From IMG/VR virus record IMGVR_UViG_2585427754_000004: a DNA stretch of 64,000 nt; one strand, given 5' to 3'. The position numbers were made by a program, and so were the translations under genes. A model generated the notes under the pieces. The model did not search any database. It was not told the origin of the DNA and saw only the letters and a program-made list of their open reading frames with translations. Within the stretch, counting starts at the first letter, position 1. Each line of letters opens with the position of its first letter. This stretch comes from a virus. Lineage: Duplodnaviria; Heunggongvirae; Uroviricota; Caudoviricetes. This document shows positions 10,970 through 30,615 of this stretch, in pieces.

Positions 10970-12288
10970 AAAAGTTGATCGCACTTAAGCATAAGCTGGA
11001 CGAAATGAAAGCTATGGGAACCAATGCAAAAAAAGAGGCATTGGCCAACATGGATGACTTCGAGCAAAGCATGGTTTCATTGATGCTCAACCCTTTCATC
11101 CGTTTTGGGGTAAAGAAATACAAAGTGGCAGAGCCGCTTAGTGAGTCCGTCCCAAGTGACGAAAAAGCCATTGATATACTGAATAAGCTGGCCTCTCGCG
11201 AGCTGACGGGGAACGCAGCAATAGCTGCTGTTGAGTCTATCGTGGCGTCAATGTGCGCCGATGGGCAGGACGTGTTCCGTCGTTTCCTCTTAAAAGATCC
11301 GAAAGCTGGCGTTGGGATTAGCCTATGCAACAAGGTTTTTGAAAATCCCATTCCGAAATTTGAGGTGCAGCTGGCGTCACCGTATAAAGAAAAAGGCGAC
11401 AAATACCCCTTCAAGCCAAATCCTAAAGCCAAATGGCCGATGATTGGCAGCCTTAAGCTCGATGGTTTGCGAGTAATTTGTGAGGTTATTGTTGACGAGG
11501 AAGAGGTGAACTTCCTTTCTCGTACTGGTAATCCAATCACGTCTCTCGATCACCTAAAGCCAGCCATGCTCGAATTAGGCAAACTTTCAGGCCACAAACA
11601 CATCTTCTTCGATGGTGAAGGAACAGCCGGTTCATTTAACCAGTCCGTATCTGCATTGCGCAAAAAGAACGTGCAGGCAATTGGCGCTATTTATCATGTT
11701 TTCGACTTCTTCCTACCGGAATGGCGGGCACAGGCTAAATCCAAAGAGTATGCAAAGACAGGTATGAAGCTGAAAGAGCGCCTGGCTATGCTCGTGGCGT
11801 TGTTCAAAAACGATCGCAGTGAAGGCTACGCACAAGACATTCACCTGCATCCGTTCTATATCATCCATAGCCACGAAGACTTCATCGAACGCTTCATGAA
11901 ACGCCTGGACGATAACGAAGAAGGGGAGATGGGCAAAGATCCGAACTCTGTTTACGAGTTTAAACGTACCCGCAGCTGGTGGAAGTTAAAAGACGAAGAT
12001 TCAGAAGATGGTGAAATTATCGATTTTGAGCCGGGCGATCCGGACTCTGGTTTTGCCAACACGCTTGGAAAAATTGTTATTCGCCTTGAAAACGGTGTGA
12101 TTGTTCGTGCGAGCGGCATTAAGCATAAATATCTGGACGAGATCTGGAACAACAAAGAGAAGTACCGTGGTCGTATTGTCGAGGTTCATTGTCACGAGAA
12201 AACGCAGGATGGCAGCTTACGCCACCCACGACTGAAATGGCCGCGTTGCTTACGCGATACAGAAGATCGAATCGGAGATAAAGAATGA
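10966..12288 (+). CDS. ATP-dependent DNA ligase
   Basis: Adenylation motif I KLDGLR (KxDGxR) and C-terminal lysine-rich motif; 440 aa. Confidence 0.7.
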   Translation: MKKLIALKHKLDEMKAMGTNAKKEALANMDDFEQSMVSLMLNPFIRFGVKKYKVAEPLSESVPSDEKAIDILNKLASRELTGNAAIAAVESIVASMCADGQDVFRRFLLKDPKAGVGISLCNKVFENPIPKFEVQLASPYKEKGDKYPFKPNPKAKWPMIGSLKLDGLRVICEVIVDEEEVNFLSRTGNPITSLDHLKPAMLELGKLSGHKHIFFDGEGTAGSFNQSVSALRKKNVQAIGAIYHVFDFFLPEWRAQAKSKEYAKTGMKLKERLAMLVALFKNDRSEGYAQDIHLHPFYIIHSHEDFIERFMKRLDDNEEGEMGKDPNSVYEFKRTRSWWKLKDEDSEDGEIIDFEPGDPDSGFANTLGKIVIRLENGVIVRASGIKHKYLDEIWNNKEKYRGRIVEVHCHEKTQDGSLRHPRLKWPRCLRDTEDRIGDKE

Positions 12289-12446
12289 TGCTCGGCTGGA
12301 TGATTGCATTTTTAGCAGTTGGTTTTTCATCGGTATTGTGGTGATGTCCAGTTGCATTAATGACTACATTAAAAACGGTGTTATAGAAAGACGAGGTCGC
12401 ATTTATCGCATTGTAGAAATAACCAACACCGTGAAGGAGATTAAGG

Positions 12447-12662
12447 ATGATCGTATTAAGTAAACGGGAGAAGGAAACGCTTCATGAAATCAGTAAGTGG
12501 CCGGAGTTCCCTGAGTACTGGAAGCCTAAAACGCGAGCTAAGTTAGAGCGGTTAGGGTTGGTTGCAAACGTTTCTGAAACGAAGTGTTCGGCCAACTACC
12601 AGTTAACTGATAAAGGGAAAGTATTGCTACAGCAATTAGTAGAATCAGGAGTGTTAAAATGA
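12447..12662 (+). CDS. Hypothetical small protein
   Basis: 71-aa ORF preceded by AAGGAG. Confidence 0.25.
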   Translation: MIVLSKREKETLHEISKWPEFPEYWKPKTRAKLERLGLVANVSETKCSANYQLTDKGKVLLQQLVESGVLK

Positions 12663-12916
12663 TTCCATACATCTCATTAGCTTTTATGGGTGGCTTCCTT
12701 ATCGGCTTCGGCATCTGTCGTGATTTAATTAAGCAGGAACTTAAAACCAAAACACTGTGCATCGGAAAGCGTGTGTATCGGGTAGTTCATGAAACAAAGG
12801 TGAAAAATGAGCAATTTAACTTCTTGGGAATGGTGGTTGGCCACCTATTTCTTAGCGGCCGGAGTCGCATTCGCCTTTTACGTAGGTCAGTTAGTCGTAA
12901 AACTGTTGCTGATTAA
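12659..12916 (+). CDS. Small membrane protein
   Basis: N-terminal hydrophobic helix; start overlaps previous stop; 3' end overlaps the next ORF by about 110 nt in another frame. Confidence 0.25.
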   Translation: MIPYISLAFMGGFLIGFGICRDLIKQELKTKTLCIGKRVYRVVHETKVKNEQFNFLGMVVGHLFLSGRSRIRLLRRSVSRKTVAD

Positions 12917-13097: not shown

Positions 13098-13875
13098 AAA
13101 CATCATGATAAGTATTTACTTACTTATCTTTTATGTATAAGATGACTTTGTTTTCGTTGAGACGCGACTGTTTGAACTTAAATACAAGTGCAAACGAAGA
13201 AGTCTATCTGGCAGTAGCCTAATAAGCCAAACACCAGCGAGGTCAGTTTCCAGCCTCGTTACCGAAATGGGACACACTGAGCGAGTGTGATTGCATAACG
13301 CAGGAGGGAACATTCATGTTCCCTCCGATGAAGTAACAGAATGGGCGGTTGGTATATTTTCAACTCCATATGACTCCCGGATTCTTAGCCACTGACCGCC
13401 CATCCTGTTACGTCATTTTGTTCAATTATGTCGTTTATACTGGGTTAAAAAGCGGCGACGTAGCCCGGCTGGTATGGTTAGCCAGCACACAACGTTGAGG
13501 CCATTACATTTTTATCAATTCTAAGGTTCTATTCACAGAGATACCGGCGAGCGTTGATATGTAACATGTTGGGCAAACATTCAATCGGAGTAGTGGCCTC
13601 AACGTTGTGAAGACAGGATTGTTGTGTAGGTTTAACCACTGTTGCCATTGGTGCCTGTTTTCACAACAAATGATTCCATACATCACATTGTATAAATTAC
13701 AAAGTAGGTGCTGTCCTCAGAAACATCATCTACTTAAAGATTTTGCCTTCTACTATTGAGCGAAGTCGAAAGCGTCTGGCACTAACGAAAAGTGCAAGTA
13801 GCGGTGCGTTTCCTGGCAGAAACTAAACCGTCGCGATTGGCACTGTTGAGTAATAAATACTGGCAGTGCTGAATT

Positions 13876-13950
13876 GATGGTGTAGCTCAGCGGTAGAGCA
13901 GTTGGCTGTTAACCAACTGGTCGGTGGTTCGAATCCACCCACCATCGCCA
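13876..13950 (+). tRNA. tRNA-Asn (anticodon GTT)
   Basis: Cloverleaf folded by hand: acceptor GATGGTG/CACCATC, anticodon loop CTGTTAA, T-arm GGTGGTTCGAATCCACC, discriminator G then CCA. Confidence 0.85.
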
Positions 13951-13955
13951 ATTTA

Positions 13956-14042
13956 GGGGAGTTAGTCCGTAGGGGCAGCGGGGTAGACTGTAAATCTACT
14001 GTCATTGCGACTCGGGTGGTTCGACTCCATCACTCCCCACCA
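13956..14042 (+). tRNA. tRNA-Tyr (anticodon GTA), type II with long variable arm
   Basis: Acceptor GGGGAGT/ACTCCCC, anticodon stem-loop GTAGA-CTGTAAA-TCTAC, T-arm GGTGGTTCGACTCCAT, CCA encoded. Confidence 0.8.
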
Positions 14043-14046
14043 AATT

Positions 14047-14122
14047 GCCGGTTTAGCTCAGTTGGTAGAGCGTCTGCCTTGTAAGCAGGATGTCAGCGGT
14101 TCGATCCCGTTAACCGGCACCA
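14047..14122 (+). tRNA. tRNA-Thr (anticodon TGT)
   Basis: Acceptor GCCGGTT/AACCGGC, D-arm GCTC ... GAGC, anticodon loop CTTGTAA, T-loop TTCGATC, CCA encoded. Confidence 0.75.
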
Positions 14123-14442
14123 ACACAACAGGTAAGAGCATTGGGCGAATCGGCGATACTGACCCACAAGCCCGTAAATCGATAGAGTCAGACCAGTGCT
14201 CTTACCGTTGTGAGGAAGTGCAGCTCTTTGAAGCAACCAGAAGATAAGCATCTGGCTTCACAACACAACGATAAGATCATTACGGTTAATCGTCGTTCAT
14301 GTGCACAATGACTGGTCGAAAGGTAGTGATCTTACCGTTGTGATGAATGCACAGGCTGATGTGCCGCAACTACAGTAGTGCGCGCTTTGCGGGGCTTGCT
14401 ACAACCCTGTGTCGGAGTTCAGCACCGACCATCACAATAGCT

Positions 14443-14529
14443 GGAGAGTAGGGAGCATGGTGCTCAAGCGGTCTTGAAAACCGTCCCATTGCGCAAGCGA
14501 TGATGGTTCGATTCCATTACTCTCCGCCA
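14443..14529 (+). tRNA. tRNA-Ser (anticodon TGA), type II
   Basis: Acceptor GGAGAGT/ACTCTCC, anticodon loop CTTGAAA, long variable arm, T-loop TTCGATT, CCA encoded. D-arm is atypical. Confidence 0.7.
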
Positions 14530-14684
14530 GACACAGCGTTGAGCGGTTTGGCCTTTTAATCACCCAGATTAAGACTCCGCTAACATAAACCAGACCGCTC
14601 AACGCTGTGATAGACAATTACGGCAGACGTTCTTAACCATAGCTTGCTAACATCCTAGCAACACTTTTTTTCAGCGCAAAATTC

Positions 14685-14708
14685 AAAGGGGCTTCGGCCC
14701 CTTTTTTG
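14685..14708 (+). terminator. Rho-independent terminator after the tRNA cluster
   Basis: GGGGCTTCGGCCCC followed by TTTTTT. Confidence 0.7.
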
Positions 14709-14750
14709 CAACTGAAAGAGTCAAGTCTACGAACTTTGTAGGAAGAAATA

Positions 14751-15553: not shown

Positions 15554-16657
15554 ATGAAAAATAGCTTTGACAGAGCACGCGCTGCGGAGAACACCTCAAA
15601 AGAGGCGATTGAGTATCTCGAAAGAGCATCTCAAATGCAGGCCGTTATGATCTCCCAGGTTAGCAATGACATGAGATTCTCGGACGCATTCATGTTATTC
15701 ACTCGCTTATCTCTGCTGATAACCAGACGTCGGCCAGAGATCGCTGTTCATTGTATTTTGATACATGTTTTGCCGCACATTGCCGATGTAAAAGTAAGTG
15801 ATATTAATAGGTTCATGGTGAACCAACTGGTCAACCCACTAATACTGGATGGCAAAATTGTTATGGGCCGCCGCGTTTTCTCTCTGATGAAGCAGTTCCT
15901 TAGCTGGTGCGCCTTCCAGGGGATGATAGACGTGTCACCGTTAAACGATATGTCACTTAACAAAGTTGCCGGTGGCGCAAAGCCCACGCCCCGCGAGCGG
16001 AAGCTGACTGACGCAGAGGTATGGGTGTTCTGGAATATATGGGACTACTTCAATGTGTGCGCTGGTACAAAATGGGCGGCCAGACTGTGTCTTGTATCAG
16101 CAAGACGACCTGACGAAGTACTGCGGGCTAAAAAAAGTGAGTTCAATCTTAAGCGTGGGGTTTGGAATCAAGGCAAGAGGAACAAATCTGCCCGTGAGCA
16201 TTCTCTGCCTTTAAGCTCATTAATGCGCACTTGTATTGAAGAGTTGTTCGAATATGGTAAAGACAGCCAGTGGCTCGTGCCTTCGAATAAAAAAATCGGG
16301 AAAGACCTTCCTATGTCTAAAGTGGCAATAGCCCAGGCATTACGTCGTATTCTGGAACGACCAGAACTGATGGAGCTTGAGCCATTTACACCCCGAGATT
16401 TGCGCCGTACTGCGCGTAGTTACTTCCCAGCATTAGGCATAAGCCAGGAGGTATCACGTAAAATCATGAACCACAGTCTTGAGGGGATAGATCGGGTCTA
16501 CGACCGTCACGATTATATGGACGAGATGCGAGACGCCTTAGAAAGTTTCTCGACGTACATCGCATCAATCGTAGAGCAACCGGATTTAGACGAAATTGAC
16601 CACAAATTTAAGGGAGATCGTCTATCAACAGAGCTTATTCGTGTAAATTTTTCATAG
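15554..16657 (+). CDS. int: Tyrosine recombinase / integrase
   Basis: C-terminal catalytic-domain pattern with Arg (RRPDEV), His and RDLRRTARS, then HS ... VYDRHDY carrying the putative Tyr. N-terminal start uncertain. Confidence 0.7.
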   Translation: MKNSFDRARAAENTSKEAIEYLERASQMQAVMISQVSNDMRFSDAFMLFTRLSLLITRRRPEIAVHCILIHVLPHIADVKVSDINRFMVNQLVNPLILDGKIVMGRRVFSLMKQFLSWCAFQGMIDVSPLNDMSLNKVAGGAKPTPRERKLTDAEVWVFWNIWDYFNVCAGTKWAARLCLVSARRPDEVLRAKKSEFNLKRGVWNQGKRNKSAREHSLPLSSLMRTCIEELFEYGKDSQWLVPSNKKIGKDLPMSKVAIAQALRRILERPELMELEPFTPRDLRRTARSYFPALGISQEVSRKIMNHSLEGIDRVYDRHDYMDEMRDALESFSTYIASIVEQPDLDEIDHKFKGDRLSTELIRVNFS

Positions 16658-24772: not shown

Positions 24773-25042
24773 GAATTATGGCGCTTGTTGAGGAAGTCAC
24801 TCCTCTTACGCACTTTGTTTTGCCATGCCGGCAGTTAGCTTCTGCCTTTGACTATTCATGCGGCAACCCCGCATTTCGCCACAATGGGCAATTCACTTTT
24901 ATGGAATAAACTGGCCGTTGTGTCGATTTAATTAGCATGGCCTTACCATGCTAATTTATTCAACTTGTACAATCCTGCAAATCTATCCACTCAGGCTTAC
25001 ACCGTCTTCGTTATTGTAGAAATGAGGATCATCAGCGTTGAA

Positions 25043-25258
25043 TCAGCTTAGAGCAACGACATTTGCTGCTGCTGGGCCTTTAGCCCCATTCTCGATAGAG
25101 AATTCGACCTGCTGGCCTTCTTCCAAAGTGCGGAAATTATTACTCTGAATTGCCGAAAAATGTACAAAAACATCTTTACTGCCATCAGCAGGAGAAATAA
25201 AGCCAAAGCCTTTATCAGAGTTAAACCATTTTACTAAACCAGTCATTTTATTAGACAT
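25043..25258 (-). CDS. Cold-shock protein (CspA family)
   Basis: [23 protein letters not shown] ... VFVHFSAIQ is near-canonical for a cold-shock domain with RNP1/RNP2 motifs. ATG at 25258 with SD; ORF track start at 25354 is probably too far upstream. Confidence 0.85.
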
Positions 25259-25587
25259 AGATATTACCTTCTTAATTTTGTGAGCCACATAGTGCGGCGA
25301 GAATTTGATCTGTATAGATTGGGACTTACTTAGGCACTTAAGGAGGAGACTCACGAAGAAGGGAAATCAGAAGATAACACTGAACTGAGACTGCTTTACT
25401 AAAACTGCTTACATAAGGTCTGTCTTGCAAACCAACGATGCTATTAACGCATACCCCTTCTTTTCATGCAACCTTTATTTTTCAAAGATAACTAATTTTT
25501 GTCACCATTGGTTTAGTAAACGTTAACGAACCAGACGATGCCAGACACCTTTACAGAGAACAGATGCCCGCCAATTGGCGGGCATCA

Positions 25588-29541: not shown

Positions 29542-30615
29542 ATGGCAAAAGGAAAATCCGCACTGGCACTTGCTCTGAAAAAGAAAATCGGTAGCAACGA
29601 CGAAATTCAGAAAGTAACTCATTGGATTGATACAGGCTTTCCACCGTTAAACAAAGCTATTTCTGGTCGTTACGATGGCGGCTTCCCATGTGGTCGTATC
29701 GTCGAAGTATTCGGTCCTCCAAGTGCAGGGAAAACGTTCCTTGCAACAGCAGCGATGATCTCCGCTCAAAAACAAGATGGTCTGGCGGTATTCCTCGATC
29801 ATGAAAACAGTTTTGACGTTGGCCTGGCTGTAGCCAATGGCCTGAACGCAGATGAGGATGACGGTCAGTGGGTATACAAGCAGCCAGATACCTTCGAAGA
29901 CTCTGTAGAGTTGATCGGCACAATACTTAAATTGGTTCGTGATGAAGAGCTTATCCCCGAATCAGCACCTATCTGTATCGTGGCTGACTCTCTTGCGTCT
30001 ATGGTTCCGAACTCCAAAGCCGAGAAGTTCGAAAAGATGGCTGAAGGCACTGCCAAAGACAAAGATCAGCTAAACATGAACGACAATACGGCACTGGCTC
30101 GTGCGACGAGTGCGAACTTCCCTACTCTGGCTTTGTGGGCACGCAAATACAACGCCTGCATCATCTTCTTGAATCAGGTTCGCACAAAAATCGGTGTAAT
30201 GTTTGGCGACCCTACTACGTCGCCAGGTGGAGATTCACCGAAGTTCTACGCTTCTGTACGTATCCGTCTTGGTGCATCGGTGATGAAGGATGGTAAAGAG
30301 AAGATCGGCCAGGACGTAGGCGCAGAATGCATCAAAAACAAAGTTGCACCACCGTATGGCAAATGCACCTGGAAATTCTACTTCGATCCTACTCGTGGCC
30401 TCGACGTTATCGAATCGCTCGTCGAGTACATGCTGGAAGAAGGATACCTGCCAAAGAACGCCAGCGGGCGAGTTGAAATTGGTGACAAGAAATACACAAA
30501 ATCGCAGATCGTCGAGATGTATCGGGAGAAGCCATTAGCAGAAATCATTGCTGCGTTACAGACGATAGATGACCGACGAGAGAAGACATCACCAACAGAA
30601 GAACTAGAAGATTAA
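29542..30615 (+). CDS. recA: RecA-family recombinase
   Basis: GRIVEVFGPPSAGKTFLA Walker A and IFLNQVRTKIGVMFGDPTTSPGGDSPKFYASVR closely match bacterial RecA core motifs. Confidence 0.85.
   Translation: MAKGKSALALALKKKIGSNDEIQKVTHWIDTGFPPLNKAISGRYDGGFPCGRIVEVFGPPSAGKTFLATAAMISAQKQDGLAVFLDHENSFDVGLAVANGLNADEDDGQWVYKQPDTFEDSVELIGTILKLVRDEELIPESAPICIVADSLASMVPNSKAEKFEKMAEGTAKDKDQLNMNDNTALARATSANFPTLALWARKYNACIIFLNQVRTKIGVMFGDPTTSPGGDSPKFYASVRIRLGASVMKDGKEKIGQDVGAECIKNKVAPPYGKCTWKFYFDPTRGLDVIESLVEYMLEEGYLPKNASGRVEIGDKKYTKSQIVEMYREKPLAEIIAALQTIDDRREKTSPTEELED

Follow-up and report, generated by a model that had tools for sequence, protein, structure and literature searches.

The 64,000-nucleotide (nt) stretch of DNA analysed here (IMG/VR virus record IMGVR_UViG_2585427754_000004, Caudoviricetes; hereafter the window) contains, from about position 13330 to 14710, a non-coding array of transfer RNA (tRNA) genes and conserved structured-RNA modules that all lie on the same strand, with no open reading frame of note across the region. 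Long hairpin units of one family (~80–120 nt) recur in this array, and the 3' strand of three of them can pair instead with sequence further downstream, closing a second fold that we call an S module. Very likely, these elements are structures conserved at the level of RNA and transcribed together with the tRNAs. What sets them apart is the defined sequence family, its fixed position at tRNA CCA ends and the alternative helix that is built on a shared strand.

An earlier note on this DNA had pointed to a repeated motif in the 320-base-pair (bp) spacer between tRNA-Thr and tRNA-Ser, and the repeat is real: CTTACCGTTGTGA occurs twice, at 14201-14213 and 14331-14343, the starts first given (14207 and 14330) differing from these by 6 and 1. 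Two relaxed copies are found at 13598-13610 and 14598-14610, and the pattern yields 6 matches where 0.82 are expected, a number reached in 0 of 100 shuffles. Every copy forms the 3' arm of a separate long hairpin, giving four units (U0, UA, UB and UC), all on the + strand, with stems of ~20 bp, common ends CACA[A/G]C...G[C/T]TGTGA and fold z-scores of -4.2 to -9.1. The end pattern CACA[AG]C...G[CT]TGTG is matched 4 times in the 64 kb (0.41 expected; 4 matches in 0 of 100 shuffles). A covariance model, R1, was built from 14 units of several phages; run without filters over the 64 kb, it matched only the four units, all on the + strand and each ~20 bits above the - strand.

The first of these, U0 (13488-13610, +), has a 20-bp stem (CACAACGTTGAGGCCATTAC / GTAGTGGCCTCAACGTTGTG) enclosing an 82-nt loop (-47.8 kcal/mol, z = -5.8; R1 66.8 bits on the + strand and 44.7 on the -); it is identical in phage Cyrano, and an equivalent unit lies ~250 nt upstream of tRNA-Asn in locus L019. 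UA (14124-14213, +) begins 1 nt past the CCA of tRNA-Thr and carries a bulged A after CACAAC. It contains the stem that had been noted around 14125 and 14200, with 14124-14144 pairing with 14193-14212 (minimum free energy -38.1 kcal/mol, z = -5.9; R1 70.6 bits on the + strand and 41 on the -), and homologues stand behind tRNA-Thr in P1, phiWec188 and loci L007, L041, L048, L054 and L109. UB (14264-14343, +; z = -4.2, R1 61.6 bits) has counterparts in Phapecoctavirus phiWec188 and Nonanavirus PJ16 that preserve its loop. UC (14532-14610, +; R1 63.3 bits) begins 2 nt past the CCA of tRNA-Ser, shows the variant ends CACAGC / GCTGTG and has counterparts behind tRNA-Ser in Cyrano and loci L013, L104, L111 and L118; this is the stem-loop already described after tRNA-Ser, with a stem of 20 bp where 19 had been counted (14532-14551 with 14590-14609, -41.2 kcal/mol, z = -9.1). 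The hairpin of the second motif copy (14264-14343) and the upstream hairpin (13488-13610) had escaped notice, as had the ends common to all four. A possible fifth, diverged hairpin at 13333-13411 (+) has a 7+13 bp stem, GUAACAG-A-AUGGGCGGUUGG ... CUGACCGCCCAU-C-CUGUUAC (-32.1 kcal/mol, z = -3.9); it matches R1 weakly (11.9 bits), its arm sequence resembles the AACAGGTAAGGGCGCTGG class of loci L009 and L109, and we place it in the unit family tentatively.

The 3' GTTGTG of U0, UA and UB doubles as the 5' strand of a second helix, closed downstream by (Y)CACAAC, and the unit helix and this closing helix are mutually exclusive. S modules follow U0, UA and UB, and downstream of UC nothing pairs with its GCUGUG. 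S0 (13604-13667, +; -25.2 kcal/mol, z ~ -3) re-uses the GTTGTG of U0 in a closing stem GTTGTGAAGACAGG / CCTGTTTTCACAAC, an inverted repeat of 14 nt with 93% complementarity. S1 (14207-14264, +) is closed by GTTGTGAGG ... CTTCACAAC and has an inner CCAGA/TCTGG hairpin and an A/G-rich centre; RNAalifold of S1 from 5 phages found compensatory change at 5 of 16 pairs, including the closing pair (A-U to G-C). S2 (14337-14438, +), with closing stem GTTGTGATG / CATCACAAT, ends 5 nt before tRNA-Ser and encloses a 5' hairpin (14349-14364, loop GGCUGA), a variable centre and a 3' hairpin (14411-14429, loop AGUUCAGCA). Its single-sequence fold is not significant (z = -0.45), and RNAalifold of 5 loci found compensatory change at 7 of 22 pairs (the homologues compared are those of L041, L007, L126 and L002). 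Both modules keep ~95–97% identity in P1 and can also be made out in Sashavirus, Nonanavirus, HK629 and other loci. Covariation is seen in the S closing stems (GUGAUG/CAUCAC to GUGGUG/CACCAC) and in both S2 hairpins (GCACA/UGUGC to GCGCA/UGCGC; GUCGG/CCGAC to ACCGG/CCGGU). The two S2 loops, GGCUGA and AGUUCAGCA, are moreover complementary to each other, and in the alignment L041 changes both, to GACUGA and UUCAGUA, so converting the loop-loop pairing GCUGA:UCAGC into ACUGA:UCAGU. Read from sequence, this suggests that the loops contact each other in a kissing-loop or tRNA-elbow-like fold, with an insertion of variable length between the hairpins. The near-invariance of CACAAC/GUUGUG, while the rest of the stem covaries, would be explained by a strand that has two partners.

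Compensatory changes affect 9 of the 20 stem pairs in the 14 units, in which 97.5% of the alignment cells are paired; the covariation score was reached by 0 of 500 shuffles and no register shift came close to it. Within the UB class (4 sequences), RNAalifold found 9 of 24 pairs covarying across three independent phages, and even the basal pairs covary (CACAAC/GUUGUG to CCCACG/CGUGGG). The strand of origin was also assessed, with the nearest tRNA as an independent guide to orientation: among 18 distinct units there are 30 G·U pairs and 1 A·C pair, a bias that the opposite strand would reverse. A tally over 37 distinct arm pairs gave 669 Watson-Crick, 72 G·U and 11 A·C/C·A pairs; many of the sequences behind these counts are related, and the counts are not independent events. 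The 5'-arm variants CGCAAC, TACAAC and CATAAC differ by transitions that still allow wobble pairing with a 3' GTTGTG that hardly varies. Closing helices in the 37 distinct units are 17–23 bp long (median 20), and their only irregularity is a single bulged A, present in 15 of the 37.

In P1, the genes plp ('putative lipoprotein') and upl are annotated as minus-strand coding sequences that lie antisense to three units and to the 3' end of trnT (69,472-70,041; L002 1575-2144). When P1 Plp and Upl were searched by tblastn, the window gave short fragments spread over different frames and L007 a broken frame, and the C-terminus of Plp is the antisense of tRNA-Thr; judged by these comparisons, both genes are most probably artefacts of annotation, placed over an array of structured RNAs. 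Both genes and trnT were non-essential in a CRISPR interference study of P1, and an RNA-seq preprint on P1vir does not mention the region. A search of Rfam 15, at gathering thresholds and at E up to 10, returned no relevant family and no ribozyme, YrlA or DicF match in the window or P1, the units giving only chance-level microRNA and small nucleolar RNA matches (13–18 bits, against gathering scores of 37–72). A relation to Y RNA-like molecules (YrlA, RF02553), which combine a long terminal stem with a tRNA-like domain, was rejected, since the matches were below threshold and fell on true tRNAs (15.1 bits in the window, 25.6 bits in P1). A literature search by sequence (CACAACAGGTAAG, CTTACCGTTGTG) brought up only unrelated coronavirus papers.

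Relatives were collected by a pattern scan of IMG/VR, by BLAST against phage and Escherichia coli collections and by R1 searches. The unit family occurs in P1 and P1-like phages, other SSU5-like phage-plasmids, Phapecoctavirus phiWec188, Sashavirus Sasha and Nonanavirus PJ16, as well as in lambdoid phage HK629, prophages such as that of UTI89 and one Pantoea genome. Sequence of the HK629 type was found in 752 of 5,426 E. coli genomes, and a scan of a genome-contig collection with one genome per species gave 4 loci, from Escherichia, Pantoea and a Cellvibrionaceae metagenome-assembled genome. The repeats are conserved in P1 and other phages, conservation in relatives being one of the points on which the earlier note had made its proposal depend. 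Twelve of 18 distinct tRNA-linked units start 0–3 nt past the CCA of tRNA-Thr, -Ser or -Asn; such units were seen in the window (Thr, Ser), in phiWec188 and in loci L007, L013, L019, L041, L048, L054, L104, L109, L111 and L118. The three P1 units (NC_005856 69,503-69,590, 69,729-69,823 and 70,005-70,084) directly follow trnT in the C1-controlled ban operon, a strongly expressed region of which they occupy the transcribed strand. Units without a tRNA (Sasha, PJ16, HK629, UTI89) are likewise always found in heavily transcribed regions and on the sense strand: Sasha and PJ16 have them within the late structural operon, between a gene shortly after the major capsid gene and the late gene that follows it, and lambdoid phages have them immediately past the tR' terminator. 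In HK629, a gene for an HNH endonuclease adjoins the hairpin unit. In phiWec188, units are confined to the tRNA-Thr gap, and on this ground we rejected a general design behind phage tRNAs in favour of a specific family. The gap behind tRNA-Ile of the same phage (L125, 3411-3487) holds a T-arm-like GCTGGTTCGAATCCAGC in a tRNA-sized fold, has no ARAGORN call and may be a degenerate tRNA.

The distribution is mosaic at the level of loops as well as of cassettes. UA-class units (window, P1, L007, L045, Sasha, PJ16, HK629, phiWec188) have almost identical stems around loops of 30–50 nt that cannot be aligned; since identical flanks adjoin unrelated loops, the loops have been replaced and have not slowly diverged. 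Cyrano lacks the entire 320-bp spacer together with tRNA-Tyr, with CACAA at both edges of the spacer deletion, and the 20-bp arms are the obvious short homologies for exchange of loops and cassettes. One site in lambdoid prophages is filled either by 'tRNA-Asn + tRNA-Thr' or by 'unit + S2'. The prophage of E. coli B27 (L128, 2340-2510) has tRNA-Asn and tRNA-Thr after tR', that of UTI89 (L129, 2005-2310) has a unit and an expanded S2, and the flanks are common to both. On this comparison, the 'moron' site behind PR' swaps tRNA and RNA-module cassettes.

The likeliest function of the units is a conventional one. Tentatively, and with rather less than even confidence, we favour a model in which they are helices for processing by a double-strand-specific (RNase III-type) enzyme, or insulators, within a polycistronic transcript of tRNAs and non-coding RNAs. 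In this model the array would be made as one precursor, starting upstream of U0 or by read-through from the preceding genes and running to the terminators near 14700, and its two-turn helices would be cleaved by an endonuclease specific for double strands, host RNase III being the likeliest one. A cut inside the stem would give tRNA-Thr or tRNA-Ser a short trailer to be trimmed by exonucleases and would also insulate the tRNAs from the RNA on either side; the tRNA at the end of a cluster would need such a cut because no downstream tRNA supplies an RNase P cut. With its 5' arm removed, the freed GUUGUG would pair with the downstream (Y)CACAAC and close the next S module, and the shared arms would offer phages short stretches of homology for swapping tRNA and RNA cassettes. 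An ideal substrate of E. coli RNase III is a helix of about two turns (22 bp), with at least 11 bp on each side of the cut, and cellular substrates are described as '~<20 bp' (PMC3867540), a length rule with which the closing helices of the 37 distinct units agree. The earlier proposal that the repeats may be processing sites coincides with the reading we favour, which is drawn from anatomy, namely helix length and a position 1–3 nt past CCA. Its other suggestions fared unevenly. A non-canonical tRNA in the spacer found no backing, ARAGORN and Rfam (E up to 10) detecting nothing tRNA-like in 14123-14442, and the spacer is not a cloverleaf because it forms an uninterrupted 20-bp helix. An undetected small RNA is supported at the level of conserved structure (two hairpin units and two folded modules, with compensatory changes and the G·U bias).

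Several observations weigh against processing as the role of the units. RNase III is the candidate enzyme by helix geometry, and a promoter scan returned no convincing sigma-70 promoter for the array. The UB loop and the S2 kissing loops are conserved beyond what a cleavage site needs, which suggests that some modules have a function of their own, and UA-class loops have been swapped wholesale between otherwise identical stems, which a simple processing site does not require. Formation of tRNA 3' ends is not the whole story, since units occur without a tRNA in Sasha, PJ16, HK629 and UTI89. In principle, covariation in a DNA palindrome could also arise by template-switch mutation, although the G·U bias argues otherwise.

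Other roles at the RNA level deserve consideration. The modules could be stable trans-acting small RNAs or decoys freed from the tRNA precursor, with the stem as a scaffold and the variable loops or C/A-rich tails as active parts, serving as a sponge for a host small RNA (sRNA) such as GcvB, in the manner of 3'ETS-leuZ (from a 3' external transcribed spacer) and AgvB, or in counter-defence. This we regard as unlikely, though not negligibly so: hypervariable UA-class loops in an identical scaffold, the UB loop and the S2 loop-loop pairing conserved with covariation, and the exposed UUCACAACACAAC at the end of the A/G-rich S1 would all be accounted for, but most CACAAC copies are buried in 20-bp helices, and the longest complementary matches of would-be antisense-guide loops (9–12 nt, in 64 kb of a ~110-kb replicon) are no better than those of shuffles. 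CACAACA is the target consensus of GcvB region R1 (distinct from our model R1), and prophages encode an anti-GcvB RNA in the same region behind PR' (PMC4104026). Window 14331-14345 (CTTACCGTTGTGATG) equals GcvB nt 58-72 (CTTACGGTTGTGATG, the start of the R1 seed) at 14 of 15 positions, a match that could be due to chance, with about one such expected over all known sRNAs. When the GcvB R1 region was run against the whole window with RNAduplex, no + strand site of the array was among the 25 best and many unrelated sites were better, and the covariation of the S closing stems is consistent with pairing inside the molecule and not with an invariant host sRNA as partner; a GcvB mimic or sponge was rejected for this lack of duplex enrichment and because the covariation favours intramolecular pairing. 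AgvB-type RNAs are, in addition, unrelated in form to the units: AgvB and AsxR are 51–60 nt long, antisense-oriented and equipped with their own promoter and Rho-independent terminator (PMC4104026), whereas the motifs of the units are mostly base-paired. If left uncleaved, the hairpins could instead act in cis as folding insulators and barriers to 3' exonucleases, like repetitive extragenic palindromic (REP) or terminator hairpins. Helices as stable as these (-30 to -48 kcal/mol), set immediately 3' of tRNAs or genes in highly expressed operons, would suit such a role, which makes no demand on loop sequence; yet a stable hairpin at the CCA would block 3' trimming of the tRNA unless it were removed, which brings back an endonucleolytic step, and the alternative pairing of GUUGUG with the S modules would go unexplained. 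We hold this barrier role to be decidedly unlikely. Equally little credence is given to the most far-reaching proposal, by which units and S modules would form an unrecognised class of phage 'tRNA-linked' RNA, with GUUGUG as a toggle and folding triggered by cleavage, producing stable small RNAs that act in trans, by the hypervariable UA-class loops or by the conserved UB loop and the S2 kissing-loop fold, on host or competitor RNAs or proteins (sRNA sponging, anti-defence) and constituting a mobile toolkit of P1-like, SSU5-like, lambdoid, 9NA-like and rV5-like phages.

The elements might also act as DNA, as attC-like recombination sites, as a small mobile palindromic element or as short homologies for cassette shuffling. 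The ends YRYAAC...GTTRYR recall the R''/R' boxes of attC, and a tyrosine recombinase gene lies 1 kb downstream (15554-16657); that gene, however, gives only a generic integrase-domain match (33.9 bits, where the cutoff is 434), no integron-integrase model matched, and the units of P1, Sasha, PJ16 and HK629 stand without a recombinase in their neighbourhood. The helix runs on without an unpaired spacer at its centre, the AAC/GTT triplet is broken in UC, and the sequence reveals no target-site duplications at unit edges. In favour are the CACAA on both sides of the Cyrano spacer deletion, the alternative cassettes at a single lambdoid site and the highly similar units of unrelated phage groups, and shuffling through arm homology can go together with an RNA function. 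Against a DNA-level role, too, stand the 4 copies only, in one array and one orientation, with none dispersed in the 64 kb, and the 30:1 ratio of G·U to A·C on the transcribed strand, which is what selection on RNA predicts and not what sites in double-stranded DNA would show. We consider a DNA-level role improbable, a slim chance at best. A miniature inverted-repeat transposable or REP-like element was rejected as such, R1 having found only four clustered, co-oriented units in the 64 kb. Finally, the spacer could be a graveyard of decayed tRNA genes with no present function. T-arm-like strings do occur in some loops of relatives (GGGTTCGAATCCC in P1 unit 1, GGGTTCATATCCC in P1 units 3 and 4, GAGTTCGACTCTC in L007), and sequence upstream of the Sasha unit resembles the remnant of a tRNA-Thr 3' end, but decay does not make or keep 20-bp helices with compensatory changes in five or more phage groups, the loops in the window have no T-loop motif, and both ARAGORN and Rfam were negative; this last explanation seems to us extremely improbable.

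The processing model has its closest parallels in known RNase III helices, such as the R sites of the T7 early region (sequence-related hairpins between early genes), the stems of 16S and 23S rRNA and the hairpin after tRNA metY in metY-nusA-infB. The units share with these a helix of about two turns, several related copies per phage transcript, a position between functional RNAs or after a tRNA, and variable apical parts. They differ in that T7 sites usually have an internal loop while unit stems are almost perfect, and in that the basal 6 bp of the units are near-invariant and common to a second, mutually exclusive helix; to our knowledge, RNase III sites with a shared, mutually exclusive helix have not been described. 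Among RNAs with targets, 3'ETS-leuZ is a sponge of RyhB and RybB derived from a tRNA spacer, and it, AgvB and AsxR resemble the modules in their origin from a tRNA-operon spacer or a moron site behind PR' and in the presence of the GcvB target consensus CACAACA. Phage T4 makes two stable RNAs of unexplained function, species 1 and 2 (rnaC/rnaD), that are co-transcribed with phage tRNAs; they too are structured RNAs other than tRNAs inside a phage tRNA cluster and are presumably released by the same processing, but by description they are not a repeated hairpin family abutting CCA ends. Integron attC sites are likewise imperfect palindromes of 60–140 bp with AAC/GTT ends, a variable centre and single-strand folding, and they bound exchangeable cassettes; unlike them, the units come without an integron integrase, an unpaired central spacer or canonical extrahelical bases, have their variable part inside the hairpin and show a strand bias of RNA type. 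The attC R''/R' boxes read RYYYAAC ... GTTRRRY and unit ends (N)YRYAAC ... GTTRYR(R), with AAC/GTT mostly present (AGC/GCT in UC and its relatives) and a different pattern of purines and pyrimidines. PeSLs (promoter early stem-loops) of T4-type phages combine a promoter with a small stem-loop and mediate modular shuffling. They resemble the units as repeated intergenic stem-loops bordering exchangeable phage modules, while the units lack a promoter motif, form much longer helices and keep their place at tRNA 3' ends.

The tRNA genes of the array were delimited by ARAGORN as tRNA-Asn (GTT) at 13876-13950 (Rfam tRNA 75.5 bits), tRNA-Tyr (GTA) at 13956-14042 (39.7 bits), tRNA-Thr (TGT) at 14047-14122 (70.6 bits) and tRNA-Ser (TGA) at 14443-14529, all on the + strand. 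This bears out the packing originally described, with 3 tRNAs in 247 bp followed by the gap 14123-14442. Rfam places tRNA-Ser only as tRNA-Sec-like, slightly below threshold (44.6 bits); PGAP annotates it in identical plasmids, whose RefSeq annotation includes all four tRNAs. By alignment, tRNA-Tyr is a clean insertion between tRNA-Asn and tRNA-Thr that is missing in Cyrano and P1. Two hairpins with U tracts that resemble intrinsic terminators (14644-14672 and 14686-14709, +) were located by sequence reading and folding; on our reading they would end the transcription unit of tRNAs and non-coding RNAs, and a consensus terminator scan did not list them. At the other end, the array leader contains a tight 10-bp hairpin, GGAGGGAACAUUCAUGUUCCCUCC (13303-13326, z = -5.4), and the AT-rich palindrome GATAAGTATTTACTTACTTATC (13105-13143), beside TATAAG/TAAGAT, is a weak promoter or operator candidate for the array.

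The 1,051 bp around the array are 100% identical to E. coli plasmids of ~100–120 kb, for example NZ_CP010153 plasmid A, and sequence related to the window-type locus was found in 742 of 5,426 complete E. coli genomes, nearly all of it on plasmids. Genes around the array encode a DnaB-like helicase, a primase, a DNA ligase, the tyrosine recombinase, a CobT-like protein, an AAA ATPase and a DnaE polymerase. The closest phage records are Escherichia phages CMS-2020a and Cyrano and Klebsiella phage-plasmids, and we read the gene content as that of an SSU5/pHCM2-type phage-plasmid. Between the DNA ligase gene and the tRNA region (window 12288-12807), the window is offset by 161 bp from the 100%-matching plasmid, and it has neither the fimbrial operon nor the IS3 insertion-sequence remnants of that plasmid. 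A full-length thermoregulator of the cspA 5' untranslated region type lies at 25018-25436 on the - strand (Rfam RF01766, 185.7 bits); the gene beside it is annotated in the matching plasmid as cold-shock protein CspG, and a thermoregulated cold-shock gene is unusual on a phage-plasmid. In the same plasmid, a LAGLIDADG homing-endonuclease gene is annotated right after the 5'-3' exonuclease gene (window ~29542-30615 and downstream).

Phage tRNAs are now seen as counter-defence tools, and their expression and exchange are therefore of current interest. If the reading given here is true, ~1.3 kb of 'empty' DNA in common E. coli phage-plasmids, together with the plp/upl DNA of P1, would be a structured-RNA array and the P1 annotation would be corrected. 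Phage biology would acquire at least three RNA motifs, namely the hairpin unit, S1 and the kissing-loop fold of S2. Phage tRNA operon processing would gain a concrete model, and the swapping of tRNA cassettes between unrelated phages would be explained.

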